NCBI GenBank assembly: GCA_016786925.1
Contig: JAEUTU010000129.1
Location: 17,792-81,791 of the forward strand
DNA length: 64,000 nucleotides
Direction: 5' to 3'
DNA from: Bacteroidia bacterium
GTDB lineage: Bacteria; Bacteroidota; Bacteroidia; 2-12-FULL-35-15
Shown: positions 2,690 to 27,143 of the stretch, piece after piece
Layout of the letters: each line of letters opens with the position of its first letter
Numbering within the stretch: the first letter of the stretch is position 1
Made by a program: the position numbers and the translations under genes
Notes under the pieces: model-generated
The model's database searches: none
What the model was told of the DNA's origin: nothing
The model's input: the letters and a program-made list of their open reading frames with translations, nothing else

Positions 2690-3832
2690 ATGAGTAAAAA
2701 GATCACGATCGTAAACAGGCATTACCCTCCTAATATTAATATTACCGGTGAAAATGCTTGGGATCTCGCTAATTATTTAATAAATAAACATGGAATTGAT
2801 GTGTCCATTGTACACATTGACAGACATTATGAAGGCGGAGGAAACCGAAGAGCTCCAGTAGGAAATGTTTATCCTATCAAAACGATCTATCAAGGTAAAA
2901 ACAAGATCCTAAGTTATTTAAGCGGATTTTTGGATGGGTATTGGCTCATAAAAAAAGCCAGAAAGTTAGATCATGGACCTATCATTGTTATGACAAGTCC
3001 TCCCTTGCTTCCCATGTGGGCATCATTGCTATTAGGAAAGAAAAATAGAAACTGGATACTGTGGAGTATGGATCTTTTCCCGGAAGGCTATGCTGCAACA
3101 AATGTGATCGGGTATAATAACCCCATCTACAAATTCATTATCAAACAGACATACAGAAATGCTCCTAAAAAACTGATCGCATTAGGTCCAAAACAGCGCG
3201 ATGTTTTACATAAAAAGTATGCTAAAGAGATTGAGAGTGTTGTTTTACCCTGTGGCGTTTTTGTTGATCAGCATAAAACAAACGAAACACCGGGATGGAA
3301 AGCACATCCTGACAAGATCTATTTAGGATATGCAGGAAATTGCGGCACTCCTCATTCATCAGCATTCATAAAAGCTGTTATTGATGCGATTGATCCTGAG
3401 ACGCAACACATGGTGATTGCTGTATACGGGACAAAAGCAGAAGAAATAAAGGCCTATGCTCAAAACAAAAAAGGGATCACCCTACTGAACTCCATCCCTC
3501 GCAATGAATTGCACCATGTTGACATCCATTTAGTAACACTGTTAGAGACTTGGACACACATTGCTGTTCCATCAAAGGCTGTAAGCAGTGTTTGTTCGGG
3601 TGCTACCATCCTTTTCTGTGGAAGTAAGGAAAGCGACAACTGGCATTTGTTAAGCAGGGCGGGCTGGCTGATCGAAGAGAATGAGCAAATGCAAAACAAG
3701 GTGATCAATACACTTAAAAGCATTACCAAACAAGAAATCGAAACAAGAAAACAGAATGCTCATACCATTTCGGTAGAATTATCGGAACTCATCACAAAAA
3801 GCTATGACACCATTGCTTCCTGGGCGGAATAG
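2690..3832 (+). CDS. Glycosyltransferase, GT4-like (WcaI/WbuB-like N-terminal pattern)
   Basis: The N-terminus VNRHYPPNINITGENAWDLANYL resembles the N-terminal signature of WcaI/WbuB-type GT4 enzymes. Size is 380 aa. It sits in the glycan locus. Confidence 0.5.
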   Translation: MSKKITIVNRHYPPNINITGENAWDLANYLINKHGIDVSIVHIDRHYEGGGNRRAPVGNVYPIKTIYQGKNKILSYLSGFLDGYWLIKKARKLDHGPIIVMTSPPLLPMWASLLLGKKNRNWILWSMDLFPEGYAATNVIGYNNPIYKFIIKQTYRNAPKKLIALGPKQRDVLHKKYAKEIESVVLPCGVFVDQHKTNETPGWKAHPDKIYLGYAGNCGTPHSSAFIKAVIDAIDPETQHMVIAVYGTKAEEIKAYAQNKKGITLLNSIPRNELHHVDIHLVTLLETWTHIAVPSKAVSSVCSGATILFCGSKESDNWHLLSRAGWLIEENEQMQNKVINTLKSITKQEIETRKQNAHTISVELSELITKSYDTIASWAE

Positions 3833-3859
3833 ATATTTTACAAATTAAAACTTTAGTCC

Positions 3860-3867
3860 TATCTTTG
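3860..3867 (+). promoter_or_regulatory. Candidate Bacteroidetes sigma-A -7 box (TATCTTTG = TAnnTTTG), 27 bp upstream of the ATG at 3894
   Basis: Motif read directly in the sequence. No clear -33 TTTG was found. Confidence 0.3.
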
Positions 3868-3893
3868 CACTCTAAATTTCTTAGCCTCTCAAA

Positions 3894-4973
3894 ATGAATA
3901 TTGCTATTGTTACAGGTTCAGGTGGATTGATCGGAAGCGAATCAGTTACTTTTTTCTCTAAAAAATTTGATAAGATCATTGGAATTGACAATGATATGCG
4001 TGCTTACTTTTTTGGGAAAGAAGCGTCCACAAATTGGAATGTCAACCGTATTCAAGAGAGTGTTAGCAATTACGAGCATCATTCTATTGATATCCGTAAT
4101 TATTCCGAATTAGAAAAGATCTTTAACCAGTATGGAAACGACATTAAGTTGGTTGTCCACACAGCTGCACAACCTAGTCACGACTGGGCAGCCAAAGAAC
4201 CATTAACTGATTTCGGTGTAAATGCAACAGGAACACTTCACATGTTAGAGTTAACCCGTAAGTATTGTGAAAAAGCTGTTTTTATATTTACATCAACCAA
4301 TAAAGTGTACGGTGACAACCCTAATTTTCTTCCATTAGTAGAAACAGAAACACGTTGGGAGATAGCCGAAAATCATCCTTATTTTAAGAATGGCATTGAT
4401 GAACAAATGAGTTTAGACAATACCAAGCATTCTGTTTTTGGCGCATCTAAAGTTGCTGCCGATGTAATGGCACAAGAATACGGAAGATATTTTGATATGA
4501 ATGTGGGTATATTCAGAGGAGGCTGCCTAACTGGCCCTAATCATAGCGGTGCTCAGCTTCATGGATTTTTATCTTACTTAATGAAATGTACCTTATCCGG
4601 AAATTCTTATACCATATTCGGTTACAAAGGCAAACAAGTAAGAGATAACATTCATAGCTCCGACCTAGTAAACATGTTCTGGCATTTTTATCAGAATCCT
4701 AAACAAGGCGTTGCTTATAATGCCGGTGGTGGACGATTTGCGAATTGCTCTATGCTGGAAGCCATAATACTTTGCGAAAAGATAACCGGAAACAAATTAA
4801 ATTATTCATACAGTGATCAAGCACGTAGTGGCGATCATATCTGGTACATCAGCGATGTATCGAAATTTCAAAAGGATTATCCGGAATGGAAATATGAGTG
4901 GAATCTGGAAAATACATTGATCGACATGTACAACAATATGAGCAAAATGATCAATGTAAAAAATTGCGATTAA
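3894..4973 (+). CDS. NAD-dependent sugar epimerase/dehydratase (SDR family, CDP-paratose/tyvelose 2-epimerase-like)
   Basis: N-terminal Rossmann motif [11 protein letters not shown]. The YxxxK catalytic motif is in [19 protein letters not shown]. Length is 359 aa. Confidence 0.75.
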
Positions 4974-4996
4974 ACTCTTTCTAAGATCAAACAAAA

Positions 4997-5028
4997 AGCC
5001 CTTTAACAAAAGTTAAAGGGCTTTTTTT
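4997..5028. terminator. Bidirectional rho-independent terminator between the convergent epimerase (+) and FkbM methyltransferase (-) genes
   Basis: The stem is agccctttaac/gttaaagggct (11 bp, perfect) with loop aaaa. T7 follows on the + strand and an A-run precedes it. Confidence 0.7.
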
Positions 5029-5042
5029 GATTATGTATCTAT

Positions 5043-5768
5043 TTATCTGAAGAAAATACCATTGCATTGCAGCATCACTCCCGTTTTATTATCTGTAAAA
5101 GCAGGAGCTATACTTTTTAATTGAAAGCCATGCTGCTTCATAAAATCTAAAACATCCGGCAATAACCAATTCTGTCCTTCATACAATGGAATGATCGAAA
5201 TCTCCATTTCAATCCCTTTTGCCTTGGAAATGATCGACTGTGCACCTTTCAGCACTTCCTGCTCAAAACCTTGCACATCTATTTTTATAAAAATATTTTT
5301 GGCCTTATCAGCATGTTCTTTGGCAATTTGATCCAACGGATACACTTTCACTTTTTCTTTTCCAATGATCTTTGAATCCGGTGCACCTTCATAATGCGAG
5401 TCCAACATGTTTAGCAAAGTACTGCTGACAGAATTTGCTGAAATATTGATCTCAATATCCTGCTCTGAACTTCCGATCGCGCAACGCTCTGCAACCACCC
5501 AATTCGCATAGCTTTTGCTGGCAGCAACGATCTGTTGGTGAACCGCAGAAAGTGGTTCAAAAGAAACGACCTTGCCTGCATAGCCTGCATCCATTATTCC
5601 TCTGGCATATTGTCCGGCATTAGCACCGATATCAAAAACCAGATCAATATTATGATGCTGAAGTAATTTGATCCTTCTTAATTCCTCACTCGTAGCCGCA
5701 TTGTATTTACGGACAAGAATGCCAAATTTTTGGAAGAAATTCTTCGTGATGCGTTCTAAATTCGTCAT
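5043..5768 (-). CDS. FkbM-family SAM-dependent methyltransferase
   Basis: FkbM signature VFDIGANAGQYARG...VVSFEP. Length is 241 aa. Confidence 0.75.
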   Translation of the reverse strand: MTNLERITKNFFQKFGILVRKYNAATSEELRRIKLLQHHNIDLVFDIGANAGQYARGIMDAGYAGKVVSFEPLSAVHQQIVAASKSYANWVVAERCAIGSSEQDIEINISANSVSSTLLNMLDSHYEGAPDSKIIGKEKVKVYPLDQIAKEHADKAKNIFIKIDVQGFEQEVLKGAQSIISKAKGIEMEISIIPLYEGQNWLLPDVLDFMKQHGFQLKSIAPAFTDNKTGVMLQCNGIFFR

Positions 5769-5771
5769 TCT

Positions 5772-6473
5772 CTATGCTTTTTCATTTACAACACGAATGA
5801 TATCATCCGCAACAGTTACTGAATAATCCGGATTGATCTTTTTCACATAATTCGTCAATTCCGGTATGGTAGGATAATCATGCTTCCCCACAAATAAACG
5901 CGCATCATCTATGAGCATCGCATGATTTTTATTATGCTTAAATACTGCATCTATTTCGGCATAGATAGGGCACTCTATTTCACTTAAAGCGGTTGATCCG
6001 CCACAATAATGACCATCCAACCAGAATAAAGTTGTTTTATCTAGTGTAGGAGCTAGTTCTGGAAGCACTTTACCGCTATCTCCTTGCAGAAGATTAATAT
6101 GTGTATCATTCTTAAAACGCTTTTTGGCAGCTTCCCAGAACTCCACACTTAATTCTATAGAATAAAGCTTTTCAAAATTCTTCTTCTGTGCTTCCATCAT
6201 ATCGCCTCTGAATGTTCCTGTTTCAACCAAATAGCTACAGTTGTATTTCTTGCCAAATTCAGCAATGATCTGCTGTTTGATCTTGTGAGGACGAGGAACA
6301 GGCTGTTTATGAATATGCCAGTTCAATACAATAAAATCGATCTCTTTATCATCAATAAGTCCTTTCTTCACCCATTCGGCTACCATTGGATCTTTTTTCC
6401 ACTTATTTCTCAAATAAGGAATAACAAACTTCTTAGCCAGATTAACGATCGGACGTGGTAAATTACTTTTCAT
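5772..6473 (-). CDS. Class I SAM-dependent methyltransferase, TylF/MycF-like (sugar O-methyltransferase type)
   Basis: YLVETGTFRGDMM and LDGH resemble the macrocin-O-MT family motifs (LVECGVYKG / LDGD). The longest ORF in the track starts at a TTG (6506). The first ATG (MKSNLPRP) is at 6473, with a TAnnTTTG box 22 bp upstream. Confidence 0.5.
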   Translation of the reverse strand: MKSNLPRPIVNLAKKFVIPYLRNKWKKDPMVAEWVKKGLIDDKEIDFIVLNWHIHKQPVPRPHKIKQQIIAEFGKKYNCSYLVETGTFRGDMMEAQKKNFEKLYSIELSVEFWEAAKKRFKNDTHINLLQGDSGKVLPELAPTLDKTTLFWLDGHYCGGSTALSEIECPIYAEIDAVFKHNKNHAMLIDDARLFVGKHDYPTIPELTNYVKKINPDYSVTVADDIIRVVNEKA

Positions 6474-6494
6474 TCTATCAAATATTAGAAGGAC

Positions 6495-6502
6495 CAAAAA
6501 TA
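6495..6502 (-). promoter_or_regulatory. Candidate -7 box (TATTTTTG on the minus strand), 22 bp upstream of the ATG at 6473. It lies in the divergent region shared with the CstII-like gene.
   Basis: The plus strand reads caaaaata, which is TATTTTTG on the minus strand. Confidence 0.3.
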
Positions 6503-6600
6503 GCAAAAAAAAGCATATTTAGTCCTTTATTCAGCACAAAAGACCCACTCTGAATACAGAAATAAACTTAGTTTAATTACATTTGTAGCCGAACAGATAC

Positions 6601-7473
6601 ATGGCCTCAGAAACAACATACAAGAATTTTTCGAAAACGATCCTTCAAGGAATAAATACTTGTTTGTCGATCATGAAGATCGTTATCAAATCGAAGTTCA
6701 AGAATAAACTGCCTCATGCAGCTTCAAACACTTGTTATGTGCTGGCCAATGGACCTTCTTTGAAGCAATCACTGGAAAAGCATTATGAGAAAATAAGTAA
6801 GAGTGAACTTATTTGTGTGAACACCTTTTCGATCACCAATGAGTATAGACAACTCAAACCGAAATACTATGTAATGATCGATCCATTCTTCTGGAATGGG
6901 AAAACGGAAGTTGTAATAAACACGTTGAAGGCGATCACAGAAAAAACAGATTGGCCAATGTATTTACTTGTTCCACAAGCTGCAACAAAGTCTGTAGCAT
7001 TTCAAAACATAGTTGCCAAAAACAAGAATGTGATCCTGACTCCATTCAATTATACCGTTTTTAAAGGATATGAAAAGGCTGCATTCTGGTTTTACAGAAA
7101 GAATTTGGCCATGCCTCAAAGTCTGAATGTGGCTATAACGGCACTTTTTCTCTCTATTAATTTAGGATTCAAGGAAGTTTACTTATTAGGAGCTGATCAT
7201 ACCTGGCATGAAAATTTGCACATGAGTGATGACAATGTGCTACACACCAAGGTAACACACTTTTATGAGAATGATCAAGAGATCAAATACATTCCATTCC
7301 TGAAAGCCGGAAACCCGAATGTAACCCAAAAAGCGCATGAATTTTTTGATATCTGGAGCAGAACATTCAGCGCTTATATGATATTAGAACGCTATTCTAA
7401 ATTCCATCATTGCAAGATCTACAATGCAAGTGAAGTATCTTTCATTGATGCATTTACAAGAAAAAAGCTTTAA
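6601..7473 (+). CDS. CstII/Cst-I-like (GT42) sialyltransferase-family glycosyltransferase. It is a candidate nonulosonic-acid transferase. DUF115/Maf-like is the alternative family.
   Basis: CYVLANGPSLKQ and LNVAITALFLSINLGFKEVYLLGADHTW match, from memory, the Campylobacter CstII motifs IIAGNGPSLKE and ITSGVYMCAVAIALGYKEIYLSGIDFY. An alternative start is at 6673 (MKIVIK), which would give a CstII-like N-terminus directly before NGPSL. Confidence 0.55.
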   Translation: MASETTYKNFSKTILQGINTCLSIMKIVIKSKFKNKLPHAASNTCYVLANGPSLKQSLEKHYEKISKSELICVNTFSITNEYRQLKPKYYVMIDPFFWNGKTEVVINTLKAITEKTDWPMYLLVPQAATKSVAFQNIVAKNKNVILTPFNYTVFKGYEKAAFWFYRKNLAMPQSLNVAITALFLSINLGFKEVYLLGADHTWHENLHMSDDNVLHTKVTHFYENDQEIKYIPFLKAGNPNVTQKAHEFFDIWSRTFSAYMILERYSKFHHCKIYNASEVSFIDAFTRKKL

Positions 7474-8159
7474 TTCTTTTGATCCAATAACAACTCTGCT
7501 AGTTTAAAATCGATCAAATGATCGACATCAACAGATCTGTCGGTAGGCATGATGTAGGCATAGGTACCTGAATGAACAAACCCTTTGTTCTTCATGAACT
7601 CATCAACCGTGGAAACATAAATAGCGCCATTTAAGCGATAATAAACAGGTAATTGCTGCCTATTCTTCCCTTTAACCTCTTCACGGATAAATTCACTCAT
7701 CGAGCCATTTTCCGGCAAAGCATTCGACCATAATGGATGATGTTCATTTTCACAAACAGAGACGATCGCTGCAGCTTTCTTCTGGATCATCAGATCAATA
7801 GCAGCATCAATATCTTTTGAAGTTCTTAGAGGCGATGTAGGCTGCAATACAACGATCAGGTCAAAAACAACCTGTTGTTGTTTGTAATGATCTAATGCAT
7901 GAATGATCACATCTGTTGTAGAGGCTGTATCGGTTGCTAATTCAGCAGGGCGAAGTACAGGAACTTCCGCTCCATGTTGTTTAGCAACATCTGCAATAGC
8001 ATCATCATCAGTACTAACAAAAACAGTTCCCTGGTATTTTGACTTCAATGCAGCGTCAATAGAATAAGCAATCATGGGCTTTCCAGCCAATAGTTTTATA
8101 TTCTTTCCGGGCAAACCTTTGCTTCCACCTCTTGCTGGTATGATGTATAGAATATTCAT
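7470..8159 (-). CDS. neuA: CMP-nonulosonic acid synthetase (acylneuraminate cytidylyltransferase, NeuA/LegF family)
   Basis: N-terminal MNILYIIPARGGSKGLPGKNIKLLAGKPMIAYSIDAA is the classic CMP-NeuAc synthetase signature. 229 aa. Confidence 0.85.
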   Translation of the reverse strand: MNILYIIPARGGSKGLPGKNIKLLAGKPMIAYSIDAALKSKYQGTVFVSTDDDAIADVAKQHGAEVPVLRPAELATDTASTTDVIIHALDHYKQQQVVFDLIVVLQPTSPLRTSKDIDAAIDLMIQKKAAAIVSVCENEHHPLWSNALPENGSMSEFIREEVKGKNRQQLPVYYRLNGAIYVSTVDEFMKNKGFVHSGTYAYIMPTDRSVDVDHLIDFKLAELLLDQKN

Positions 8160-9211
8160 TAGAAATTAATGTGTTTTACATCCTCCTGGGCCTTATAAAA
8201 ATCTTCAATCCTACCAATATCTAACCAATAACTCAATATAGGGTAAGAGATCAATTTCTTATTGTTTTTTATCACTTCTTCCATAAAATGAGTAGCATCA
8301 AATGCAATTCCATCCGGAATAAGATCAATCAATTCCTTTTTAAATAAATAGATCCCTGCGTTTGAATAATATGTATAACGGGGCTTTTCAGAGAAAGACA
8401 ACACTCTGTCATCCTGATCGATCTCCATAACAGCATATGGAACATCCACATGGTAAGGAATCGTAGCTACCTGCATATCTGCTTTTGAGTCGATGAATTT
8501 TTTATAAAAATCATGAAAATCAATGTTCGTCAAAAGATCAGAATTCATCAACAGAACTACATCATTCTTTATGTCCTTTATCAATCGAACTGAACCAATT
8601 GTTCCTAATGGCATTTCTTCCTTTACAAAGTCGATGTTTAGTTCCTCCGTTTTGTGTGCATTTACACCTTCCACGATCTGATCGGCCATGTGGCGAACAG
8701 AGATCGAAAAATCATTTACTCCAAAACCGGCCAATCGTTCGATATTCCGAACAATGATCGGCTTCCCTCCTATTTCAAGCATTGGCTTAGGAGTTGTATC
8801 AGTAAGTGGTTTCAAACGCTCTCCTTTTCCTCCCGCCATCAAAACAGCATTCACAGGAATGATCGATCTCAATTTATCCAGATCTACGATCTTGATGATC
8901 TCTTTCTTTTTATTTAAAACAGGTATAAATCGTATTCCGGCATCTTTGTAGCGACTAATTTTTTCGAAATTATTTTCCCCTTCAACAAAGCACTTACTGT
9001 TTGTATTCATGAAAGAAGTGATGGAATCATCAATTGTTTTCCCATTCAACAAACCTCTACGAATATCACCATCAGTAAGAGATCCTACTAATTGCTGCTG
9101 ATCATTTACCACAAAAACAGCAATATTAGGAATCGCCAGATCATTGATCAACTTAAGTGATGTACGAGCTGTTTCCTTATCTGAAAGAATAAATTTATTT
9201 AGATCGATCAT
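8159..9211 (-). CDS. CBS-domain sugar-phosphate nucleotidyltransferase (PtmE-like, predicted GlcN/GlcNAc-1-P guanylyltransferase of legionaminic acid pathways)
   Basis: N-terminal tandem CBS-like region followed by an NTP-transferase G-loop LMAGGKGERLKPLTDTTPKPML. 1-bp overlaps with both neighbours. Confidence 0.7.
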   Translation of the reverse strand: MIDLNKFILSDKETARTSLKLINDLAIPNIAVFVVNDQQQLVGSLTDGDIRRGLLNGKTIDDSITSFMNTNSKCFVEGENNFEKISRYKDAGIRFIPVLNKKKEIIKIVDLDKLRSIIPVNAVLMAGGKGERLKPLTDTTPKPMLEIGGKPIIVRNIERLAGFGVNDFSISVRHMADQIVEGVNAHKTEELNIDFVKEEMPLGTIGSVRLIKDIKNDVVLLMNSDLLTNIDFHDFYKKFIDSKADMQVATIPYHVDVPYAVMEIDQDDRVLSFSEKPRYTYYSNAGIYLFKKELIDLIPDGIAFDATHFMEEVIKNNKKLISYPILSYWLDIGRIEDFYKAQEDVKHINF

Positions 9212-19429: not shown

Positions 19430-20091
19430 CTTACGATCTGTTTTAATTTTTCTGCTATCCGTTCTGCATACAATTTATTACCTAATACATTCAGATGTGA
19501 ATCAATGGGATGTAAATATTTTTCATAATCGATCTGATTCAGTAAAAATGAATGAACATCCACAAGCAGATCATCTTTTATATACTCATTTAAAACACTA
19601 TTAAATCTGGTAATTGACTCATTGGCTCCCGGTGTATCTTTATTTTGAAACGCATTTACAGGAGCAATGTTTACCCATATCAATTTACCCGAGAACTCTT
19701 CTTTCACTGTGCTGATAGCTCTTTCAAATTCATTAATACTTGTCCATGTTTTAGAGCGAATATACTTAATAAAAAAAGCCCTATTCATACGAATGATCTT
19801 ACGTATCAGCTTATTAAAAAAGGAAGTTGAAATAGTCCTTTCATGGCTGATCACACGGGGATATGCATCTACAATCCCTGATTGAATAACAATAATATCT
19901 GCATCACGGTGTGTATTTATCAAACTTGGCATATCAGTCATTTTCCGGAATGACAAATAATCAACTATAAAAGTATGTTCCGGAAATAATTTTTGAATGA
20001 TCACAGGAAATGTTTCACTTTCATTCACCTCCACAACATTATTATGAATGCGAGGTCCGCCATAACTGTCTGCAAGGATCACTATCTTCAT
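19426..20091 (-). CDS. SGNH/GDSL-like hydrolase-fold protein (possible sugar O-acyl esterase/transferase). First gene of the operon.
   Basis: MKIVILADSYGG N-terminus with a conserved Ser in an SGNH-type block. 221 aa. 4-bp overlap with the downstream gene. Confidence 0.4.
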   Translation of the reverse strand: MKIVILADSYGGPRIHNNVVEVNESETFPVIIQKLFPEHTFIVDYLSFRKMTDMPSLINTHRDADIIVIQSGIVDAYPRVISHERTISTSFFNKLIRKIIRMNRAFFIKYIRSKTWTSINEFERAISTVKEEFSGKLIWVNIAPVNAFQNKDTPGANESITRFNSVLNEYIKDDLLVDVHSFLLNQIDYEKYLHPIDSHLNVLGNKLYAERIAEKLKQIVR

Positions 20092-20238: not shown

Positions 20239-21720
20239 ATGGGAATCATTGAAAAACAAGCAACTAAAAATGTGATCTACTCCTATTTAGGAGCATTTTT
20301 GGGCTTTATTACGATCATTTTCTCATCGCATGCATTAAGTCCAGATGAAAATGGGCTAACTCGTATCCTTCTTTCATTATCGATCTTAATGGCGCAATTT
20401 GCCGGTTTAGGCTTTAACACGGTCACCATCCGTTTGTTTCCATATTTCAGAGATCACGACAAAGGACATCATGGTTATCTATTTTATGGTATTCTGGTTA
20501 CATTGGCCGGCTTTTCTTTGTGTGTCATTTTCTATTTTTTATCAAAAGATTATCTGATCGAAAGTAATCAGGAGAAGTCAAAATTATTTGTCGATTACAC
20601 TCATTATCTTTTACCTCTAACGCTTTTTACTTTATTCTTCAATCTCTTTGATTATTACTTAAGAGCCTGCTATAACTCTGTGATCGGCTCCTCTTCAAAA
20701 GAATTCTTTCAACGGATCATAATACTCATTGTACTTGCCGCATTCTTTTTTAAGTGGATCGACTTTTCTGCTTTTGTATTATTATATGTTGCAGCTGTAT
20801 GTTTTCCTACCTTTATTTTACTGTATTACATTATCAAGTTAAAAGAATGGCATATTAAGCCGGTTAGAGGATTTGTAAGCAAAGAACTTAGAAAAGAGAT
20901 CATTAAACTGAGTTTATATTCCATATTAGCTGGAGGAGCTGGTGTTTTGATCTCTAACATTGATATTATCATGGTGAATCAAAAATTAGGATTAGCTCAA
21001 GCTGGTATCTACGGAATCGCATTTTATTTTGGAACGATCATCATTATTCCTTCCCGTTCATTACTAAGAATTGCTATGAGTGTGGTGTCAGAAGCATTCA
21101 AAAAAGATGACATTAAAGAGATCCACAGCATTTATAACAAATCATGCAACACACAATTAACGATTGGATTATTATTATTCATAGGAATCTGGGGAAACAT
21201 TGATAACATTATGCAATTACTCCCTCCAGAGTACAGAGGCGGTGAAAATGTGATCCTTTTTATTAGTCTAGGCTATTTAGTAGATATGGCCACAGGCATC
21301 AATTATGTGATCGTATTAACATCAAAATATTATCGTTTCGACACTTATTTTATGCTGATCGTTTTAACATTGACGATTGCAACCAATTATATTTTAATTC
21401 CTTTGTATGGAATAACAGGTTCTGCAATAGCTACAGCAATCACCATCTCATTCTATAATATTTTAAGATGGCTGTTCTTATATTATAAATTCAAGATGCA
21501 GCCCTATGATCTAAACACGATCAAATTGCTTTTAATAGGTGTGATCTCTTTCCTTCCGGGGTATTTCATTCCTGCAACAGGCATATTGTTTCTTGATCTG
21601 GCAATAAAAAGCAGTATTATTGGTGGTCTTTTTATACTGCTGATTCTAAAAATGGAAGCCGCTCCCGATATCAATGCGAAGATCAGAAAGAACCTGTTAC
21701 GCTTTCACATAAAACTATAA
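20239..21720 (+). CDS. Oligosaccharide/polysaccharide flippase (Wzx-like, MOP superfamily)
   Basis: 493 aa with about 12-14 predicted TM helices throughout. Typical polysaccharide biosynthesis protein architecture. Confidence 0.7.
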   Translation: MGIIEKQATKNVIYSYLGAFLGFITIIFSSHALSPDENGLTRILLSLSILMAQFAGLGFNTVTIRLFPYFRDHDKGHHGYLFYGILVTLAGFSLCVIFYFLSKDYLIESNQEKSKLFVDYTHYLLPLTLFTLFFNLFDYYLRACYNSVIGSSSKEFFQRIIILIVLAAFFFKWIDFSAFVLLYVAAVCFPTFILLYYIIKLKEWHIKPVRGFVSKELRKEIIKLSLYSILAGGAGVLISNIDIIMVNQKLGLAQAGIYGIAFYFGTIIIIPSRSLLRIAMSVVSEAFKKDDIKEIHSIYNKSCNTQLTIGLLLFIGIWGNIDNIMQLLPPEYRGGENVILFISLGYLVDMATGINYVIVLTSKYYRFDTYFMLIVLTLTIATNYILIPLYGITGSAIATAITISFYNILRWLFLYYKFKMQPYDLNTIKLLLIGVISFLPGYFIPATGILFLDLAIKSSIIGGLFILLILKMEAAPDINAKIRKNLLRFHIKL

Positions 21721-21766
21721 AGCCTTCATTTTTTGATGAAGGCTTTATAAAAATTAAATAGTGATA

Positions 21767-24295
21767 TTAGTCTTTCTTTTGTCGCAATCCCAACACAACT
21801 GCTCCTCCTAACATTCCGAACAGCACCAAACAACTTACTAAAGAGATCTTTTCACCTGTGTAGTATTTCGTTGGCTCAAATTTAAACTCGATCTTATGCT
21901 CACCGGCAGGTACACGCATTGCGCGTAAGATCCAATCACCTGAGAAATATGTTTTTTTCTCCCCATCAACATACACATTCCAACCATCTTTATAAAACAC
22001 TTCTGAGAATACAGCTAACTGCTCAGAAGATGTTTTAGATTCATAGGTCAAATGATTAGGTTTATACTCTGCCAAGCGGATCTTTGCGTTTGCATCAGCG
22101 CTAGGTTTAAAACCATCTAATTCAGATTGATAACGTTTGTCAACTACAATCGTTTTTGCAGGGTCGATCTCACCTAATGTCGCCAATTCCTGATCTGCAT
22201 TATCCACCATTTTTATCTCATCAACAAACCAAGCATTACCCAATGCATATCTGTTTTGCAATGGCTGTGCTTCCGGATTGTAAATGATATATTTAGTATT
22301 TAACATATTTAAAACACCTTGCTTTGAAAAAGTATATCTCAAAGCCGAATCGGTAGGATTAGATCTCAAAGTGTTTCCAATATTTTGAATATTAGAAGTG
22401 ATATGCGTTTCAATCAATTCTTGATATCTTCTCAATTTGGCCGGGTGGTAACCACCAACAGATTTGTGAAAATAAGAAGTAGCTGCATCGTTAAACGGGC
22501 CTTCTTTCGGACCGGCAAGATTCAGCACTCTGTAATTCGGATCCTTATCCTCCAAAATAGCAAGATCTGCTGCACTAGGAGTAAATGGCGTTTCTGCCTT
22601 TTTCTTATCACTAAAGCTTTTATCGTTCAAATGACGCTTGTCCACTCCCCACAGATCGATAAGGATCACCAAACCTAAAAGTGGGATCATGATATTGGCA
22701 TTTATCTTATTCTTCAAATATAACCATAGTACTAATGCACCCAACACTACAAAAAAGAAACTTCTCAGGGCATCGGCTTTAAACAAAGCAATACGGGCTG
22801 TTTCCACATTATCCATAACTTGTTGCGCAACCTGAGCACCATTACTTTTTTGAATACTTTCAAACATTTGCGCATCTGCTACTGATGTAAAATCTGTAAG
22901 AGAAGGCATCAAATAAAATAACAATGACAATCCACCTGTTAGACCAAAGGAAACAAAAAAGGCATTTTGTACACTCAACTCCGTTTTGGTAAAAGGCAAA
23001 CGAACTTTATCCTTGATCAAACCCGGATTCTTGATCAATTTATCGACTACTAAAATGGCTAAAAGGGGAATACAAAACTCGGCAATCACAAGAATTTGCG
23101 AAACGGCTCTAAACTTGTTATACATTGGGAAATAATCTAAAAACAGCTCTGTGAGCCACATCATATTCTTTCCCCACGACAATGTGATGGATAAGATTGT
23201 ACCCGCCAATAAAACCCATTTCATTCTGCCTTCCACCACAAACAATCCAAATACAAAAAGGAAAATCACGATCGCTCCTGCATAAGGAGACATCGTAAAC
23301 AATTGATCTCCCCAATATTGCGGCATACTACCGATGTATTCTTTCATTTGAGGATCTACATCTTTTAAGGCATTTTTATTTTCGGAAACAGGAATATTAG
23401 AAGAAGTACCTTTAAATCCCGGAATCATTAAGGTCATCACCTCTGCCTTACCCATGCTCCATTGAGTTGCATAATCTTTATCTACCCCACTCGTCTGGTT
23501 AGCACCATCTTTCGTTAATTCAGAAGGTCCACGAATGGTGTATTTAGAGTATTCATAAGTGCTCCAAAGGTTTGCAAAATTACAGCCAACACCAATCACA
23601 CCTGCGACTAGAAACACAGCAATTCCTTTTCCTATTTCTGCATACATTTTCTCCTTTATCTTTATGGCCCACTCGATCAACATATAGATCAAAAGGAAAA
23701 TAAAGAAGTAATAGGTCATCTGAATATGGTTACACAATAGCTCCAACGCAAAGAACAAGGCTGTCAATGCTCCACCCAACAAATATTTGCCTCTGTTAAC
23801 AAGAATAACACCTCCAAAAAGTGGTGGCAAATAACCTAATGCTGCCGCTTTGGTAATATGTCCTGCATCCAAAATAATAAACGTATAAGCTGTAAATGCA
23901 TACGCAATGGCTCCAACTATTGAAAGCCAGGGATTAACCCTTAGTATGATCAGTAAAATAAAAAAGCCTAGCATGAGGTTGAATAACATCATAGCCGGAG
24001 AAGACATACCTAGGGTTAGTATCGTTCTTACTTCATATAAAAAGTTATTCGGGTAGCGAATAGAAATTTGATAAGCCGGCATCCCACCAAACATAGAATT
24101 GGTCCACAAAGCCTCTTCTTTTTGCTGCTCTCTGAAATCGGAGATCTCTTTTGACATGGCTTTATTCAGCACCATATCACTTTGCACGATCACTTTATCT
24201 TTCAGCATCGGACTGAAGTATCCGTATGTCAGACCAACAAATAAAAGAACAGCTGTTATAACCGGGATTAACGCTTTTAGATTTATGTTTTTCAT
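21767..24295 (-). CDS. YfhO-family polytopic membrane protein (lipid-linked glycan glycosyltransferase family)
   Basis: 842 aa. Multi-TM N-terminal two thirds plus a C-terminal soluble beta-rich domain and a terminal TM helix. This matches YfhO-family topology. Confidence 0.7.
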   Translation of the reverse strand: MKNINLKALIPVITAVLLFVGLTYGYFSPMLKDKVIVQSDMVLNKAMSKEISDFREQQKEEALWTNSMFGGMPAYQISIRYPNNFLYEVRTILTLGMSSPAMMLFNLMLGFFILLIILRVNPWLSIVGAIAYAFTAYTFIILDAGHITKAAALGYLPPLFGGVILVNRGKYLLGGALTALFFALELLCNHIQMTYYFFIFLLIYMLIEWAIKIKEKMYAEIGKGIAVFLVAGVIGVGCNFANLWSTYEYSKYTIRGPSELTKDGANQTSGVDKDYATQWSMGKAEVMTLMIPGFKGTSSNIPVSENKNALKDVDPQMKEYIGSMPQYWGDQLFTMSPYAGAIVIFLFVFGLFVVEGRMKWVLLAGTILSITLSWGKNMMWLTELFLDYFPMYNKFRAVSQILVIAEFCIPLLAILVVDKLIKNPGLIKDKVRLPFTKTELSVQNAFFVSFGLTGGLSLLFYLMPSLTDFTSVADAQMFESIQKSNGAQVAQQVMDNVETARIALFKADALRSFFFVVLGALVLWLYLKNKINANIMIPLLGLVILIDLWGVDKRHLNDKSFSDKKKAETPFTPSAADLAILEDKDPNYRVLNLAGPKEGPFNDAATSYFHKSVGGYHPAKLRRYQELIETHITSNIQNIGNTLRSNPTDSALRYTFSKQGVLNMLNTKYIIYNPEAQPLQNRYALGNAWFVDEIKMVDNADQELATLGEIDPAKTIVVDKRYQSELDGFKPSADANAKIRLAEYKPNHLTYESKTSSEQLAVFSEVFYKDGWNVYVDGEKKTYFSGDWILRAMRVPAGEHKIEFKFEPTKYYTGEKISLVSCLVLFGMLGGAVVLGLRQKKD

Positions 24296-24396
24296 ATAAA
24301 AAGTATGTTTATAGAGAACAAATATAATTATTTAATTGAGGCGAAAACAGGCAAGTTTTACCTCATTTTAGGTATTTCAAAGTCATATTAAATGCT

Positions 24397-24404
24397 TATT
24401 TTTG
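24397..24404 (+). promoter_or_regulatory. Candidate -7 box TATTTTTG, 19 bp upstream of the ATG at 24423
   Basis: Direct TAnnTTTG match in the YfhO/dioxygenase divergent region. Confidence 0.3.
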
Positions 24405-24422
24405 CCTATCAATTCTAAAAAA

Positions 24423-25235
24423 ATGAAAAATTTGTTGAATCCTTCATTATTAGATGAAGCAAAAATAAAAGAGATACGTTCTGCATTCGAAAATGCGCAA
24501 CCTTGCAAACATGTGGCTGTTCCTAATTTTTTGAATGAAGAATTAGCCAATACACTATATGAGAATTTTCCAAAGTTGGAAGCATTGAATGTAAAAAGAA
24601 AGAGTATCAATGAAAACAAATCGGAAGAATACCATTTAGAACGCTACCACCCTGCTTTCAATCAGTTACGCGATTTTATGAATTCACCTGAAATGTATGA
24701 GTGGATTAGCAAAGTAACTGGGATTGAAGACTTGCGCTCTACTTATGATTCTTTGGGATCGGGAGTTCATCAAGGCGGACCGGGGAGTTTTGTTGACGTG
24801 CATGTGGATATAAACATGAATCCTGTTGCCAACCTTCACCGAAGAATAAATGTATTGATCTATTTAAATAAACATTGGAAAGATGAGTATGGCGGAGCAT
24901 TGGAGTTCTGGGACAAGGATGTAAAAAATTGCATTTCCAAAGTAATGCCTTATTTCAACCAGGCTGCGATCATGGTGACGGATGAAACATCCTATCATGG
25001 ATATGCAAAGATCAATATCCCTGATCATGAGAGTCGCAAATCATTTTACTGTTACTACTACACTCCTGCCGGAAAAGATTTTGTTTTCCGTGATTCGAGA
25101 TTCAAAACCCGCCCGGATGAAAGTGTAACTAAGACTGCTATAACCGAAGTTAAAGAAACATTAAAGATCAATATCAAACGTTTCTTAAAAGCTATAGGTA
25201 TAAAATCACTCGACTTCCAAGACAAAAATAAATAA
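24423..25235 (+). CDS. 2OG-Fe(II) dioxygenase, prolyl-4-hydroxylase-like
   Basis: HVDVHVD (HxD) ... RRINVLIYLNKHWKDEYGGALEFW ... SYHGY pattern resembles the P4Hc domain. The track ORF begins at a TTG (24402); the first ATG is at 24423. Confidence 0.55.
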   Translation: MKNLLNPSLLDEAKIKEIRSAFENAQPCKHVAVPNFLNEELANTLYENFPKLEALNVKRKSINENKSEEYHLERYHPAFNQLRDFMNSPEMYEWISKVTGIEDLRSTYDSLGSGVHQGGPGSFVDVHVDINMNPVANLHRRINVLIYLNKHWKDEYGGALEFWDKDVKNCISKVMPYFNQAAIMVTDETSYHGYAKINIPDHESRKSFYCYYYTPAGKDFVFRDSRFKTRPDESVTKTAITEVKETLKINIKRFLKAIGIKSLDFQDKNK

Positions 25236-26029
25236 TGTCACTTCACAATAAGGTAGTTTGGATAACAGGAGCTTCATCAGGAATTGGTGAAGCTCTTGCT
25301 TATGTTTGTGCTAAACAAGGGGCTAAACTTGTGCTTTCTGCACGAAGAGAAAAAGAATTGGAACGTGTAGCAGAAAATTGCAAACTCGACAAAAAACATA
25401 TTCTCATACTACCACTTGACCTAGAACATACCAAACATGTTTCAGAAAAGGTTGAAACAGTAGTTAAAGAATTCGGAAGAATTGATGTATTGGTCAACAA
25501 TAGCGGTATGGGGCACCGTACCAAAGCTGTAAATACCTCTACCGAAATCGACAGAAAAGTAATGGAAGTGAATTTCTTTGGAACCATTAACCTTACCAAA
25601 GCAGTGGCCCAACAAATGCAAAAACAGCAATCAGGTAAGCTGGTGGTTATCAGTAGTATCATGGGGAAATACGGAATGCCACTTTACTCTACATACGCTG
25701 CTTCTAAACATGCATTGTATGGCTATTTTGAATCGTTGCGACAAGAACTTTTTAAAGACAACATCAAAGTATTGATCGTTAGTCCGGGTTTTATTAATAC
25801 CGATGTTAGCACAAAACTATTGCGGGAAGACGGATCGGAATACGGTATAAAAAGCGATGCTCAAGAGAAAGGAATGAGTGCCATGGATTGTGCAAAAGGG
25901 ATAGTAAATGCCATAAATTCAAATAGGGACCACAAATTCGTTGGAAAGTATGAGATCTTCTCCGTTTATGTAAAACAGTATTTCCCTAAGATTTTTTACA
26001 AACTGATGCGCAAAATGACCAAGGAGTAA
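25235..26029 (+). CDS. Short-chain dehydrogenase/reductase (SDR)
   Basis: VWITGASSGIGEALAY (TGxxxGIG). YAASKHAL (YxxxK). TAATG overlap with the upstream gene. Confidence 0.85.
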   Translation: MSLHNKVVWITGASSGIGEALAYVCAKQGAKLVLSARREKELERVAENCKLDKKHILILPLDLEHTKHVSEKVETVVKEFGRIDVLVNNSGMGHRTKAVNTSTEIDRKVMEVNFFGTINLTKAVAQQMQKQQSGKLVVISSIMGKYGMPLYSTYAASKHALYGYFESLRQELFKDNIKVLIVSPGFINTDVSTKLLREDGSEYGIKSDAQEKGMSAMDCAKGIVNAINSNRDHKFVGKYEIFSVYVKQYFPKIFYKLMRKMTKE

Positions 26030-26102
26030 ATCAGCTCCCCGACTGATATTAATCATCTTTTTATTTATAATTCCTCCCTAACCTTGTAACCAAGTTTAGG
26101 AT

Positions 26103-27143
26103 ATGTTAGGGATACAGATCAACTCATTTGAAGTAAAGAATTTTTTCGTACAAAGGATTGGCAAAAGTTCCTTTGTATGGCGCGGTATCGAATTCTTGCA
26201 AGGGCTTTCCTACAGCTTCAATTATTGGCTTTATTATGGCAGTGATCTTATCAAAAGAAAAACATCCATAACAGAGATCAACATCGAATTTGTAAGCTAC
26301 TGTAATTTACGCTGTAAGTTATGTTCCTTGGATCATGAAAAGACAAAAGTGAGAATGTCTCCCGAAACATTAAGTCATTTTTTTGATGAATTTCTGAATG
26401 ATGACCGTTTTAGAAGTGTTAAAACGATCCATCTATACAATGCTGGAGAAGTACTTCTACATCCTAAATTAGAAGAAATGCTTTCCATTATCAGAAAGTA
26501 TAAAGAGATAGCAGCAAAAGAGAAAAAGCACTTCCCCAAAATAGCATTACTTACAAATGCTACCATTTTGGATGAAGAAAATTCTGCCATCCTAATTCGT
26601 TCAGGCGTATTGGATCACATTCGCTTTAGTATGGATGGAGGAAATAAAGAAAAATTTGAAGAAATGCGTTTAAGAGCAAAGTGGGATGTATTCGTGAAAA
26701 ATATTAGCTCATTTTGTGAACTCAACCATAAAAGCGAAAAACCTATCCCTACGGGGATCATCACATTAGTTGAATATGAAAACAAACTTCACACCAAATG
26801 GATGAGTGATGAGTTTAAAAAATTATTGAACATGGTTGATGGCTACGAGCTACGTTATGCGCACAATTGGGGAGGAGAAGTTGAAATTGAGGAATTAAAA
26901 GACAAAAACAAGAAAGCATATAAAGTAGGATGTAGTTTATTAATGCATCAACTTGTTTTACTTCCTAATGGTGATATAACCGTTTGTTGTGCCGATCTGA
27001 ATTCAAAAGGAGTGATCGGAAATATATTAAAAGAAGATCTGTTTAGTATTTACAGAAAGCCTCAGCGGCTAGATATGTTACATAAATTCATGAAAGGGAA
27101 AAAGAAAGAGATCGATCTTTGTAAAGATTGTGAAACATTCTAA
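26103..27143 (+). CDS. Radical SAM protein with a C-terminal SPASM/twitch-like cysteine cluster
   Basis: CNLRCKLC (CxxxCxxC) at aa 68-75. C-terminal CCADLNSKG...CKDCETF cysteine cluster. 346 aa. Confidence 0.7.
   Translation: MLGIQINSFEVKNFFVQRIGKSSFVWRGIEFLQGLSYSFNYWLYYGSDLIKRKTSITEINIEFVSYCNLRCKLCSLDHEKTKVRMSPETLSHFFDEFLNDDRFRSVKTIHLYNAGEVLLHPKLEEMLSIIRKYKEIAAKEKKHFPKIALLTNATILDEENSAILIRSGVLDHIRFSMDGGNKEKFEEMRLRAKWDVFVKNISSFCELNHKSEKPIPTGIITLVEYENKLHTKWMSDEFKKLLNMVDGYELRYAHNWGGEVEIEELKDKNKKAYKVGCSLLMHQLVLLPNGDITVCCADLNSKGVIGNILKEDLFSIYRKPQRLDMLHKFMKGKKKEIDLCKDCETF

Follow-up and report, generated by a model that had tools for sequence, protein, structure and literature searches.

A conserved secreted beta-propeller protein encoded within a legionaminic-acid operon of an uncultured Bacteroidia bacterium, a possible carrier of the glycan

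[quoted passage not shown] The Leg sugar genes are ordinary; the distinctive feature of the region is a conserved secreted beta-propeller protein, a cargo of type IX secretion (T9SS), that is encoded within the sugar operon. A functional tie of some kind between this protein and the nonulosonic-acid (NulO) glycan is likely. The whole scheme that we propose, in which the product of the Leg island is flipped by Wzx, transferred by a YfhO-like enzyme and borne by the propeller protein as its co-expressed carrier, is tentative.

Results

Eleven genes on the minus strand, running from 20091 to 7470, form a tightly packed operon that comprises the Leg pathway, two Gfo/Idh/MocA-type oxidoreductases, an SGNH-like protein and the T9SS cargo (Table 1). 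Eight of the ten junctions overlap, intergenic gaps in the ORF map do not exceed 68 nt, and no strong terminator was found inside the operon; strong bidirectional terminators lie at 4993-5026 and 21715-21750. The 11 genes are thus predicted to be co-transcribed. All the genes listed in the original prediction were recovered in the ORF map and with Pfam and NCBIfam, but that list had left out the largest gene of the region, which codes for the T9SS cargo. The window also encodes two more T9SS type-A cargos and a PorE-like protein.

Table 1. Features of the island and of the embedded T9SS cargo (window coordinates).
Feature	Position	Strand	Basis
GT4-like glycosyltransferase candidate, 380 aa, left edge of island	2690..3832	+	WcaI model E 0.003; no Pfam match
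SDR-type NAD-dependent sugar epimerase/dehydratase	3894..4973	+	PF01370 121 bits
FkbM-family methyltransferase	5043..5768	-	PF05050 74 bits; TIGR01444 94.5 bits (cutoff 37.7)
Conserved 244-aa protein, possible class I methyltransferase	5772..6506	-	subthreshold Methyltransf_11/25, E 0.07
Maf-type (Maf_flag10/DUF115) candidate legionaminyl transferase, central catalytic domain only	6601..7473	+	PF01973
CMP-nonulosonate synthetase (LegF role)	7470..8159	-	PF02348 (CTP_transf_3) 103 bits; PseF model 179 (cutoff 206)
CBS + sugar-1-phosphate nucleotidyltransferase (PtmE-like)	8159..9211	-	PF00483 128 bits + PF00571
NeuD/PglD-type N-acetyltransferase (LegH role)	9208..9825	-	TIGR03570 194 bits (cutoff 161); PglD_N + hexapeptide repeats
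T9SS cargo, 1,123 aa (GenBank MBL7890823.1)	9829..13200	-	PKD_4, Ig_7, CHU_C domains
Type-B T9SS C-terminal sorting domain, aa 1038-1123	9832..10089	-	PF13585 49.8 bits; TIGR04131 51 bits (cutoff 35)
Ig_7/PKD stalk, aa 426-1037	10090..11925	-	Pfam Ig_7 + PKD_4; length differs between orthologues
Seven-bladed beta-propeller, aa 24-425	11926..13131	-	predicted fold
D115-T116-V117, Bacteroidota-type O-glycosylation sequon	12850..12858	-	D-T-[VIT] in 8/9 homologues covering the column
Sec signal peptide, aa 1-23	13132..13200	-	translation; one hydrophobic segment, aa 3-21
Hydrolysing 2-epimerase, LegG/NeuC type	13190..14314	-	TIGR03568 407 bits (cutoff 236)
Swapped cassette, T9SS gene + legG	9834..14349		blastn against L124 (GCA_017303895.1)
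Nonulosonate synthase LegI/NeuB	14296..15321	-	TIGR03569 488 bits (cutoff 400); PseI model 283 (cutoff 340)
LegC aminotransferase	15318..16460	-	TIGR04181 563 bits (cutoff 420); PseC model 242 (cutoff 424)
LegB NAD-dependent 4,6-dehydratase	16453..17445	-	TIGR04180 516 bits (cutoff 475); PseB model 90 bits
Two Gfo/Idh/MocA-type oxidoreductases	17514..18473, 18458..19429	-	PF01408 26 and 39 bits
SGNH/GDSL-like protein, first gene of operon	19426..20091	-	PF13472 22.4 bits (cutoff 32.9)
Wzx-type flippase	20239..21720	+	PF01943 31.8 bits (cutoff 28.2); about 12 hydrophobic segments
YfhO-like GT-C membrane glycosyltransferase	21767..24295	-	PF09586 36.5 bits (cutoff 28.5), C-terminal profile part only
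2OG-Fe(II) oxygenase, SDR, radical-SAM/SPASM	24402..27143	+	Pfam

The T9SS cargo gene lies between legG and legH, overlapping the former by 11 nt and standing 3 nt from the latter. The predicted mature N-terminus of the protein is Gln24, a nearly invariant residue, and the conserved N-terminal propeller is the part that defines the family. The orthologues range from short forms of 518-534 aa with no stalk to proteins with long stalks, and their sorting domains are of either type B or type A (PF18962). The whole cargo contains 14 D[ST][AILVMT] sequons for 5.1 +/- 2.0 expected, 12 of them in the stalk. Together with the conserved D-T-[VIT] site of the propeller, this excess hints that the protein is a glycan acceptor. 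In Tannerella forsythia, T9SS S-layer proteins bear an O-glycan ending in Leg or Pse (PMC5420450).

Several properties of the protein nevertheless speak against a carrier. The sequon-rich stalk is not conserved, the short orthologues lacking it, and a single sequon is kept. Alignment of the propellers gave 51 invariant columns, with many charged residues among them, a pattern expected of an enzyme or ligand-binding site more than of a passive carrier. The folds that match best are those of lactonase-like enzymes, ligand-binding surface lipoproteins and lectins. The propeller protein could instead be an enzyme or a lectin outside the cell, with the Leg glycan as its substrate or ligand; it might then trim, de-esterify or delactonise this glycan, or keep it attached to the cell surface. 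Many exopolysaccharide operons encode a secreted enzyme whose substrate is the operon's own polymer, as with AlgL, BcsZ and PslG. We consider such a role possible, if somewhat unlikely.

The propeller family is rare: one search gave 11 matches among 5.8 billion proteins, and another, of 1.84 billion proteins, gave 30 representatives at E<=1e-30. Linkage was counted over 15 lineages with at least 38% identity. In 13 of these 15 the gene belongs to a Leg operon, where it immediately follows legG and/or precedes legH; the same legG-legH slot is occupied in nine lineages with both flanks visible and in four more with one flank visible, and start and stop codons at these junctions often overlap by 4 nt. 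In L094 the gene is co-oriented with a YfhO-like gene, with an overlap of 8 nt, at a locus that also contains Wzx and a different NeuB/GNAT/CMP-transferase (nonulosonic-acid) cluster, and L083 is the only lineage in which it is unlinked. Compared with L089, the propeller is 81% identical, LegG 61% and LegH 85%; by this measure it is as conserved as the neighbouring enzymes. Propeller-bearing loci take basal positions in one family-level clade of the LegG tree, where they are interleaved with loci without the gene, and they are also found in a second, distant clade.

Comparison with L124 by blastn gave 92.0% identity over window positions 1-9833 and 91.5% over 14350-15485, and the stretch in between was unmatched; at that place L124 has PIG-L, an epimerase of 30% identity and a GNAT. 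Judged from this alignment, legG and the propeller gene were replaced together, as a single cassette, in this 92%-identical relative. Because the propeller gene is absent from several close relatives (L003, L004, L006 and L124), Leg synthesis does not depend on it. These absences would suit an ordinary Leg island that feeds LPS, capsule or general Bacteroidota O-glycosylation, in line with the original prediction, the T9SS gene being a passenger kept by linkage in a variable slot. The legG-legH junction does vary, since it holds a TylF-like methyltransferase in L001 and the PIG-L deacetylase in L124 and is empty in L003, L004 and L006, and Leg loci without the propeller gene are common in Bacteroidota, making up most of the best 80 of 312 matches. 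A mere passenger is, however, unlikely: the same slot is kept across lineages with 41-81% identity despite changes in sorting-domain type and stalk length, the gene is present in two distant LegG clades, it reappears beside YfhO/Wzx with a different NulO cluster, and its conservation equals that of the surrounding enzymes.

In Porphyromonas, anionic LPS and a linking sugar are used for T9SS cargo attachment, and the linking-sugar pathway includes Gfo/Idh/MocA and DegT-type enzyme classes. Both classes are encoded in the operon, and with the additional type-A cargos and the PorE-like protein of the window they would fit a Leg-containing glycan that serves as anchor polymer for T9SS cargo attachment, with the propeller protein as its principal cargo. 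We find this improbable, since the other cargos show no connection with the island, neither a ligase nor a sortase gene is nearby, and the orthologues interchange type-A and type-B sorting domains, which are handled differently at the surface.

The complete NulO pathway of the original prediction was found, with genes for LegB, LegC, LegG, LegI, the LegH-type and PtmE-like enzymes and the LegF role. The profile-model test proposed there supports Leg over Pse: LegB and LegC are above their equivalog cutoffs, whereas the PseB and PseC models are far below theirs, and no PseB, PseC or PseG type was found by the profile models among the ORFs of the window. The Leg call thus holds on the LegB and LegC scores, the NeuC-type 2-epimerase, the CBS-nucleotidyltransferase and the lack of PseG. 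The Leg pathway of T. forsythia, whose LegB is specific for GDP-GlcNAc, was assigned by the same criteria, and the CBS-nucleotidyltransferase would have the role argued for its counterpart there (PMC5378307). Pseudaminic acid or an ordinary sialic acid is a highly improbable product, for although the synthase also exceeds the cutoff of the generic N-acetylneuraminate synthase model and PseF is the best model for the CMP-synthetase, the PseB, PseC, PseI and PseF models all fail (Table 1), LegB and LegC exceed Leg-specific cutoffs, and the 2-epimerase and PtmE-like enzyme are present without PseG. The Gfo/Idh/MocA pair recurs next to Leg genes in 16 or more other loci, and it occurs with Leg core genes in no fewer than 12 unrelated loci of Bacteroidota; this recurrence suggests that the pair may be an accessory of the pathway rather than a sugar-decoration step. 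The SGNH assignment is weaker than had been claimed, its score being below the Pfam cutoff; the L081 homologue is recorded as PF13472.

The left edge of the island agrees with that of its relatives. The GT4 candidate located there has no Pfam match itself, but among its 359 homologues some carry PF13579/PF13439 or are named GT4/WbuB, and the gene adjoins Leg loci in five Cytophagales. The SDR epimerase is found at 87-99% identity in L085, L089 and L124, and the 244-aa protein stands beside the Maf-like gene at 65-98% identity in these three loci and in three others. Of the two methyltransferases proposed, the FkbM protein stands, while the 244-aa protein has only subthreshold matches. The gene read as CstII-like proved to encode a PF01973/Maf_flag10 protein and not a GT42 enzyme; its Maf-type fold, GT42-like, was confirmed by structure prediction, and neither a signal peptide nor a TM segment was found in its sequence. 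Known Maf enzymes act in flagellin glycosylation, in the cytoplasm. They attach nonulosonic acids by an O-link to Ser/Thr (10.1101/2020.06.03.131540; PMC9298399).

The SDR epimerase, the Gfo/Idh/MocA pair, Wzx and YfhO were likewise confirmed. The YfhO-like protein has 10 TM segments within aa 1-551, a soluble domain of ~265 aa and a terminal TM segment, and its gene adjoins Wzx and NulO genes in L006, L082, L087 and L094 as well as in four Cytophagales loci. In streptococci, GT-C enzymes of the YfhO type attach glycans to surface proteins on the outer side of the membrane, and cnm, an adhesin gene, shares a transcript with pgfS-pgfM1-pgfE (PMC5856776, PMC12041528). The 2OG oxygenase, SDR and radical-SAM genes were correctly named, but they are probably a conserved flank and not part of the glycan system, because the first two are more conserved (78-85% identity in L006, L082, L087 and L094) than the glycan genes of the same loci (~45-85%), and the radical-SAM gene was detected next to this pair in L006 alone (80%), the SDR of L082 being followed by an isocitrate/isopropylmalate dehydrogenase. 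As had been predicted, the scanned ORFs of the window yielded neither an initiating phosphoglycosyltransferase nor Wzy or Wzz.

Discussion

In the proposed scheme, CMP-Leg would be made in the cytoplasm via a GDP-linked pathway, and Leg would be attached by the Maf-type transferase and/or the GT4-like enzyme to a lipid-linked glycan, with methylation of this glycan as a possible next step. Wzx would carry the glycan across the inner membrane, and the YfhO-like GT-C enzyme would transfer it outside the cytoplasm. The extracytoplasmic partner would be the propeller protein, co-expressed from the Leg transcript; most likely it would be the dedicated carrier of the Leg glycan, and T9SS would then display the glycan-bearing protein at the cell surface. 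We infer in which order the transfers occur, that a lipid carrier takes part and, most of all, that the propeller protein acts as acceptor. Against the scheme, the Maf-like protein, having neither a signal peptide nor a TM segment, could not directly reach a Sec-exported protein, a YfhO-like gene is not visibly adjacent in the propeller-bearing loci L081 and L084, several close relatives do without the propeller gene, and the window yielded no initiating transferase. The strongest pointer to a protein- or surface-linked role of the glycan is the presence of a T9SS cargo in the Leg operon.

The legionaminic acid operon encloses the gene of a secreted protein

Eleven genes run on the minus strand, no two of them more than 68 nt apart, and in the ORF map neighbouring genes overlap at eight of the ten junctions. 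The run encodes a legionaminic acid (Leg) pathway and, within it, a 1,123-aa type IX secretion (T9SS) cargo, the largest gene of the region, which the original prediction of a Leg-centred glycan island had left out. Nearly all the genes named in that prediction were recovered when the ORF map was combined with Pfam and NCBIfam profile searches. Most of the identities stood; the SGNH gene scored below the Pfam cutoff, and the GT4 glycosyltransferase was recognisable solely through its homologues. The initiating transferase, Wzy and Wzz had been described as missing, and none of the ORFs scanned in the 64-kb window matched any of them.

The original prediction had also stated that PseB- and PseC-type matches together with a PseG-like hydrolase would point to pseudaminic acid (Pse) instead of Leg. 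LegB and LegC passed their cutoffs, the PseB, PseC and PseI models failed, and no scanned ORF of the window matched a PseG-type UDP-sugar hydrolase in Pfam or NCBIfam. With 90 and 242 bits against the PseB and PseC models and PseG absent, the pathway is therefore Leg-type and not Pse-type. Identical criteria were used and biochemically verified in Tannerella forsythia, also a member of the Bacteroidota (PMC5378307). The acetyltransferase, the CMP-synthetase and the PtmE-like enzyme are assigned to Leg at the family level only, because Leg-specific models do not exist for them. The same set (LegB, LegC, PglD-like N-acetyltransferase, LegG, LegI, CMP-synthetase and PtmE-like nucleotidyltransferase) makes up the GDP-linked CMP-Leg pathway of Campylobacter jejuni and of T. 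forsythia FDC 92A2/UB4 (PMC5378307). Unlike that pathway, the operon is headed by two Gfo/Idh/MocA genes and an SGNH-like gene and is interrupted by the T9SS cargo gene. A look for PtmA and PtmF in the paper on B. subtilis Leg, meant to give the Gfo/Idh/MocA pair a role, found neither. The predicted product of a Leg pathway is a 5,7-diamino-3,5,7,9-tetradeoxy-D-glycero-D-galacto-nonulosonate, whose stereochemistry the extra epimerase and oxidoreductase genes could alter.

Strong bidirectional terminator-like hairpins with 15-bp stems separate two convergent gene pairs, SDR epimerase/FkbM and Wzx/YfhO, and no such strong hairpin was detected inside the operon. A sigma-70 promoter scan, whose model does not cover Bacteroidota-type promoters, returned 68 sites against 76 expected.

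Features of the glycan island and of the remaining window
Feature	Position	Strand	Basis or remark
11-gene operon	20091 to 7470	minus	ORF map
SGNH-like protein	19426-20091	minus	heads the operon
Two Gfo/Idh/MocA proteins		minus	second and third in operon; Pfam and NCBIfam profile searches
LegB, non-inverting NAD-dependent 4,6-dehydratase		minus	TIGR04180 516.3 bits (cutoff 475); PseB model 89.9 bits
LegC-type aminotransferase		minus	TIGR04181 562.7 bits (cutoff 420); PseC model 241.5 bits (cutoff 423.5)
NeuB-type synthase		minus	TIGR03569 487.6 bits (cutoff 399.7); PseI model 283 against 340
NeuC-type hydrolysing 2-epimerase (LegG)		minus	TIGR03568 407.4 bits (cutoff 235.9)
1,123-aa cargo	9829-13200	minus	between legG and legH
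NeuD/PglD-type N-acetyltransferase		minus	TIGR03570 194 bits (cutoff 160.8)
CBS-nucleotidyltransferase, PtmE-like		minus	PF00483 128 bits plus CBS
CMP-synthetase		minus	last gene of operon; PF02348 103 bits
Maf_flag10/PF01973 protein, 290 aa	6601-7473		passes PF01973
Terminator-like hairpin, SDR epimerase/FkbM	4993-5026		
Terminator-like hairpin, Wzx/YfhO	21715-21750		
2OG-Fe(II) oxygenase and SDR	24402-26029	plus	
'Site-specific recombinase', 658 aa	27140-29116	minus	PF10136 627 bits; no NCBIfam match
OmpA-family protein, 722 aa	30941-33109	minus	PD40 repeats
Leucine-rich-repeat (203 aa), CHAP-domain (199 aa) and eukaryote-like WD40-repeat (306 aa) proteins	41128-43242		adjoining
T9SS cargo	45800-46630	plus	type-A sorting domain (PF18962)
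T9SS cargo	51560-53977	minus	type-A sorting domain (PF18962)

The cargo carries a predicted seven-bladed propeller

The cargo gene and the stop of legG overlap by 11 nt, and 3 nt separate its end from legH. Its product comprises a Sec signal peptide read from the sequence, a domain of about 400 aa without Pfam family, Ig_7 and PKD repeats, and a type-B T9SS sorting domain (TIGR04131 51.3 bits, cutoff 35; PF13585 49.8 bits). The GenBank entry MBL7890823.1 bears the sole annotation 'gliding motility-associated C-terminal domain-containing protein'.

In the AlphaFold model (pLDDT 79.7, pTM 0.82) the N-terminal domain forms a seven-bladed beta-propeller. The close-ranking fold matches were generic WD40 propellers, BtuG-type surface lipoproteins, an archaeal S-layer propeller-PKD protein and propeller lectins. 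Their identity to the model in structural alignments was 7-14%, too low for a catalytic assignment from the fold. The domain had no Pfam match even at E<=5, the lactonase family PF10282 included, and a phmmer search against the PDB returned only 3hfq (E 0.09); the likeness to PF10282 propellers thus appears in the predicted fold only, and sequence membership fails. Likewise, at 7-13% identity in structural alignments, no sequence relationship was detectable to the lactonase-like propellers YbhE/Pgl, PpgL and BACUNI_04672 or to the BtuG-type lipoproteins, from which the cargo differs by its stalk and its T9SS sorting domain. A sialidase role was dropped because sialidases have six blades, against seven in the model, and are missing from the fold matches listed.

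The cargo holds 14 sequons of the Bacteroidota O-glycosylation type (D[ST][AILVMT]) against 5.1 +/- 2.0 in shuffled sequences, these being predicted sites irrespective of occupancy. One of them, D-T-[VIT], is kept in eight of nine propellers. An exported protein with such motifs would qualify as a substrate of the general O-glycosylation of Bacteroidota. Variation of the Ig-repeat region by slippage was rejected, as there are no DNA-level repeats in it.

The propeller gene is rare and linked to nonulosonic acid operons

In themselves, Leg loci are frequent in Bacteroidota, with 312 relatives of the Leg epimerase among species-representative genomes. The N-terminal domain of the cargo matched 11 of 5.8 billion clustered proteins; when 1.84 billion representatives were searched with a profile, 30 matched at E<=1e-30, about two dozen of them over the full length. 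Genomic context was recovered for 15 lineages, each at least 38% identical to the window's domain, which are the reachable contexts and not a complete census. The order legG-cargo-legH, frequently with 4-nt start/stop codon overlaps, was found with both flanks visible in nine of them (the window and the homologous loci L002, L081/L091, L082, L084, L086, L087, L089 and L090). Four further lineages have the gene directly after legG, or have legH or the PtmE-like gene downstream; the other flank is a contig end in L085, L088 and L093 and lacks a detectable legH in L092.

In L094 (38% identity) the homologue lies away from the Leg slot. This protein of 1,049 aa with a type-B sorting domain (locus 5180-16566) begins 8 nt inside the end of a YfhO-like gene, so that its start overlaps the stop of the latter. 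Wzx is encoded beside it, as is a different nonulosonic acid (NulO) cluster, possibly Pse-like, with a NeuB that shares 34% identity with LegI, a GNAT fusion of 497 aa and a CMP-transferase; a PhyH dioxygenase gene lies there too. L083 alone of the 15 lineages is without NulO-type neighbours.

Across the lineages the sorting domain is of type A or B, and the stalk ranges from none (proteins of 518-534 aa) to many Ig/PKD domains, while the propeller stays conserved. Between the window and L089, identity is 81% for the propeller, 61% for LegG and 85% for LegH, and nine propeller homologues of 39-51% identity share 51 invariant columns. A simple distance tree (neighbour-joining) of LegG places propeller-bearing loci on basal branches of one family-level clade, mixed with relatives lacking the gene, and also in a second, distant clade, a pattern compatible with ancestral presence and several losses. 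In L086, which has the propeller and no detected Maf-like gene, the gene after legF (13377-14462) belongs to PF07388, the alpha-2,8-polysialyltransferase family, a hint that this lineage may make oligo- or poly-Leg.

The legG-legH junction is a variable slot

A close relative, L124 (GCA_017303895.1), was found through its 94%-identical GT4-like protein. By blastn it matches the window at 92.0% identity over 1-9833 and at 91.5% over 14350-15485, with no match between. Where the window has legG and the cargo gene (9834-14349), L124 has a trio (17142-20008) of a PIG-L deacetylase, a NeuC-type epimerase 30% identical to LegG and an Acetyltransf_9 GNAT. Because legG and the cargo gene are replaced jointly, both move as one cassette, and the genes of the trio suggest that the L124 strain makes a differently N-acylated nonulosonate. 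Furthermore, in locus L001 the slot is filled not by the cargo gene but by that of a 262-aa TylF-like O-methyltransferase (11208-11996; E 0.001), and in three other loci (L003, L004, L006) it is empty. The legG-legH junction is a variable slot taking different inserts.

Transferase and membrane protein genes around the operon

A Maf-type gene, a conserved 244-aa protein, an FkbM methyltransferase, an SDR epimerase, a GT4-like protein, a Wzx flippase and a YfhO-like membrane protein are encoded around the operon. The Maf-type gene had been called 'CstII-like'; membership in GT42 fails at the sequence level, and the gene encodes a Maf-type transferase. Maf_flag10 domains have a GT42-like variant of the GT-A fold, and Maf enzymes O-link NulO to Ser/Thr of flagellin (10.1101/2020.06.03.131540); Maf4 of C. 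jejuni is a putative legionaminyl transferase (PMC9298399). The window protein has the Maf_flag10/PF01973 central domain with this fold, and 208 of its 290 residues align with the central domain of the 632-aa Maf chain 5mu5; the flanking domains are missing. The protein probably works like a Maf catalytic domain. With the central domain alone, and with no flagellar gene in any ORF scanned in the window, it is not to be classed as a flagellin Maf. PDB sequence searches with the Maf-like, 244-aa and GT4-like proteins gave no matches. A strict pairing of Maf and propeller was discarded, as the presence of the Maf-like gene does not follow that of the propeller gene.

The YfhO-like protein has 10 hydrophobic (TM) segments within aa 1-551, a soluble region of about 265 aa and a terminal TM segment. 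It passes PF09586 with 36.5 bits (cutoff 28.5), covering only profile positions 754-835 at the C-terminal end, and thus combines Pfam membership with a multi-TM N-terminal part and a large C-terminal domain predicted to be extracytoplasmic. The YfhO-Wzx pair flanks Leg genes in L006, L082 and L087 and in four Cytophagales loci (L012, L013, L016, L056). This recurrence in its own family and in Cytophagales argues that the pair is part of the system.

The flank and the remaining window

A dioxygenase/SDR/radical-SAM trio had been counted as part of the island. The genes are present, and their membership is unlikely: the 2OG-Fe(II) oxygenase and the SDR are 78-85% identical in L006, L082, L087 and L094, where the glycan genes are more diverged (59-64% for the YfhO-like protein). 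In all these loci and in the window the pair is divergent from the YfhO-like gene, and the radical-SAM gene accompanies it among these relatives in L006 only. Because the pair is better conserved than the glycan genes of the same loci, we read the three genes as a conserved flank. The oxygenase has a weak match to YhhC, a cyclophane-peptide oxygenase, and the adjoining radical-SAM protein matches SPASM maturases; a RiPP-like peptide-maturation reading was considered and set aside, these matches being weak. The PF10136 recombinase gene is convergent with the radical-SAM gene, with a 4-nt overlap.

The rest of the window holds housekeeping genes and two further T9SS cargos, one of 276 aa and the other of 805 aa with CarboxypepD_reg and LVIVD repeats. 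Besides these two, the T9SS components in the window amount to the PorE-like OmpA-family protein, which stays below the cutoffs of both the CHU_0125 family (268 bits against 620) and PorE (237 against 600). The leucine-rich-repeat, CHAP-domain and WD40-repeat proteins are unrelated to the island.

A proposed role for the propeller protein

From gene identities, operon packing, conserved linkage, cassette behaviour and predicted folds, that is from sequence, structure prediction and gene context in metagenome-assembled genomes, we infer the following course of events. CMP-Leg would be made in the cytoplasm, and the Maf-type and/or the GT4-like enzyme would put Leg on a lipid-linked glycan, a possible substrate of the methyltransferase(s). 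Wzx would flip the lipid-linked glycan, and the YfhO-like GT-C enzyme would transfer the glycan outside the cytoplasm. The co-expressed propeller protein would be an extracytoplasmic partner, for which the role of carrier (acceptor) is favoured, tentatively and at slightly below an even chance.

The carrier is favoured because acceptor genes are typically embedded with dedicated glycosylation genes, as in flagellin/Maf/NulO islands and for Cnm with pgfS-pgfM1-pgfE, and because the T9SS S-layer proteins TfsA and TfsB of T. forsythia bear a Leg- or Pse-terminated O-glycan (PMC5420450). The excess of sequons in the cargo and the conserved D-T-[VIT] site argue in the same direction. Against it, short orthologues do without the sequon-rich stalk, and the Maf-like enzyme has neither signal peptide nor TM segment; it is thus presumably cytoplasmic, with no direct reach to a Sec-exported protein. 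Moreover, the conservation of the propeller, with many invariant charged residues, resembles that of an enzyme or a binding module, which also speaks against a carrier. In the main rival reading, less likely than the carrier but not far behind it, the protein would be an enzyme or lectin that acts on the Leg glycan outside the cell. That the cargo gene is a pure passenger is unlikely, because its linkage recurs across lineages.

Wzx, the YfhO-like enzyme, the Maf-type protein and the T9SS propeller might together form an undescribed, dedicated NulO protein-glycosylation route of Bacteroidota, in which the YfhO-like enzyme would move the flipped lipid-linked Leg unit onto the co-encoded cargo in the periplasm; we consider this improbable. 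The known systems resemble it in part. TfsA and TfsB are likewise T9SS-exported Bacteroidota surface proteins with a NulO-ended glycan, which is built on a lipid carrier and then flipped (PMC5420450, PMC12871550). They are, however, S-layer proteins and not a beta-propeller protein, and published descriptions of the T. forsythia NulO loci place no cargo genes inside them (PMC5420450, PMC5378307). NulO is transferred there by an enzyme with a TagB domain (about 445 aa), whereas the candidate transferase of the window is a Maf-type protein, and the analogy to Maf-like T. forsythia Leg/Pse transferases was abandoned for this reason (PMC5420450).

The flagellin islands of Campylobacter, Aeromonas, Clostridium and Geobacillus also combine a NulO pathway, a Maf_flag10 transferase and a secreted structural protein. 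Flagellin leaves through the flagellar export apparatus, whereas the propeller protein would exit by Sec and T9SS, and the Maf-like protein of the window lacks the flanking domains of the 632-aa Maf. Flagella are not known from Bacteroidota. In the cnm-pgfS-pgfM1-pgfE-pgfM2 operon of Streptococcus mutans, an adhesin gene shares a transcript with the genes that glycosylate its product, including those of YfhO-family GT-C enzymes (PgfM1) that act outside the membrane (PMC5856776, PMC12041528). This Gram-positive system uses HexNAc from a polyprenyl-phosphate donor, without NulO or T9SS, and the window's YfhO-like protein resembles PgfM1 over its C-terminal 65 residues only (25 bits, cutoff 1400). 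Full-text literature searches on type IX secretion and legionaminic acid led mainly to T. forsythia, with no cargo gene described within a NulO operon, and those on YfhO and Bacteroidota found nothing related.

New here is a rare, well-conserved family of secreted beta-propellers whose gene, in at least 14 of the 15 lineages, lies inside NulO operons, and the cassette swap between strains points to the locus as a place where the cell surface varies. The O-glycan transferase and ligase of Bacteroidota are listed as undiscovered in a 2025 review (PMC12871550); if the dedicated route were true, the YfhO-like protein would be a concrete candidate for this periplasmic function. If the propeller protein is the carrier, the locus would combine sugar, acceptor and transferase in one self-contained module for surface display, useful for tracing O-glycan attachment in Bacteroidota because the transferase is still to be discovered there. 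If it instead acts on Leg glycans as an enzyme or binds them as a lectin, it would be the phylum's first extracellular factor with specificity for that sugar class.
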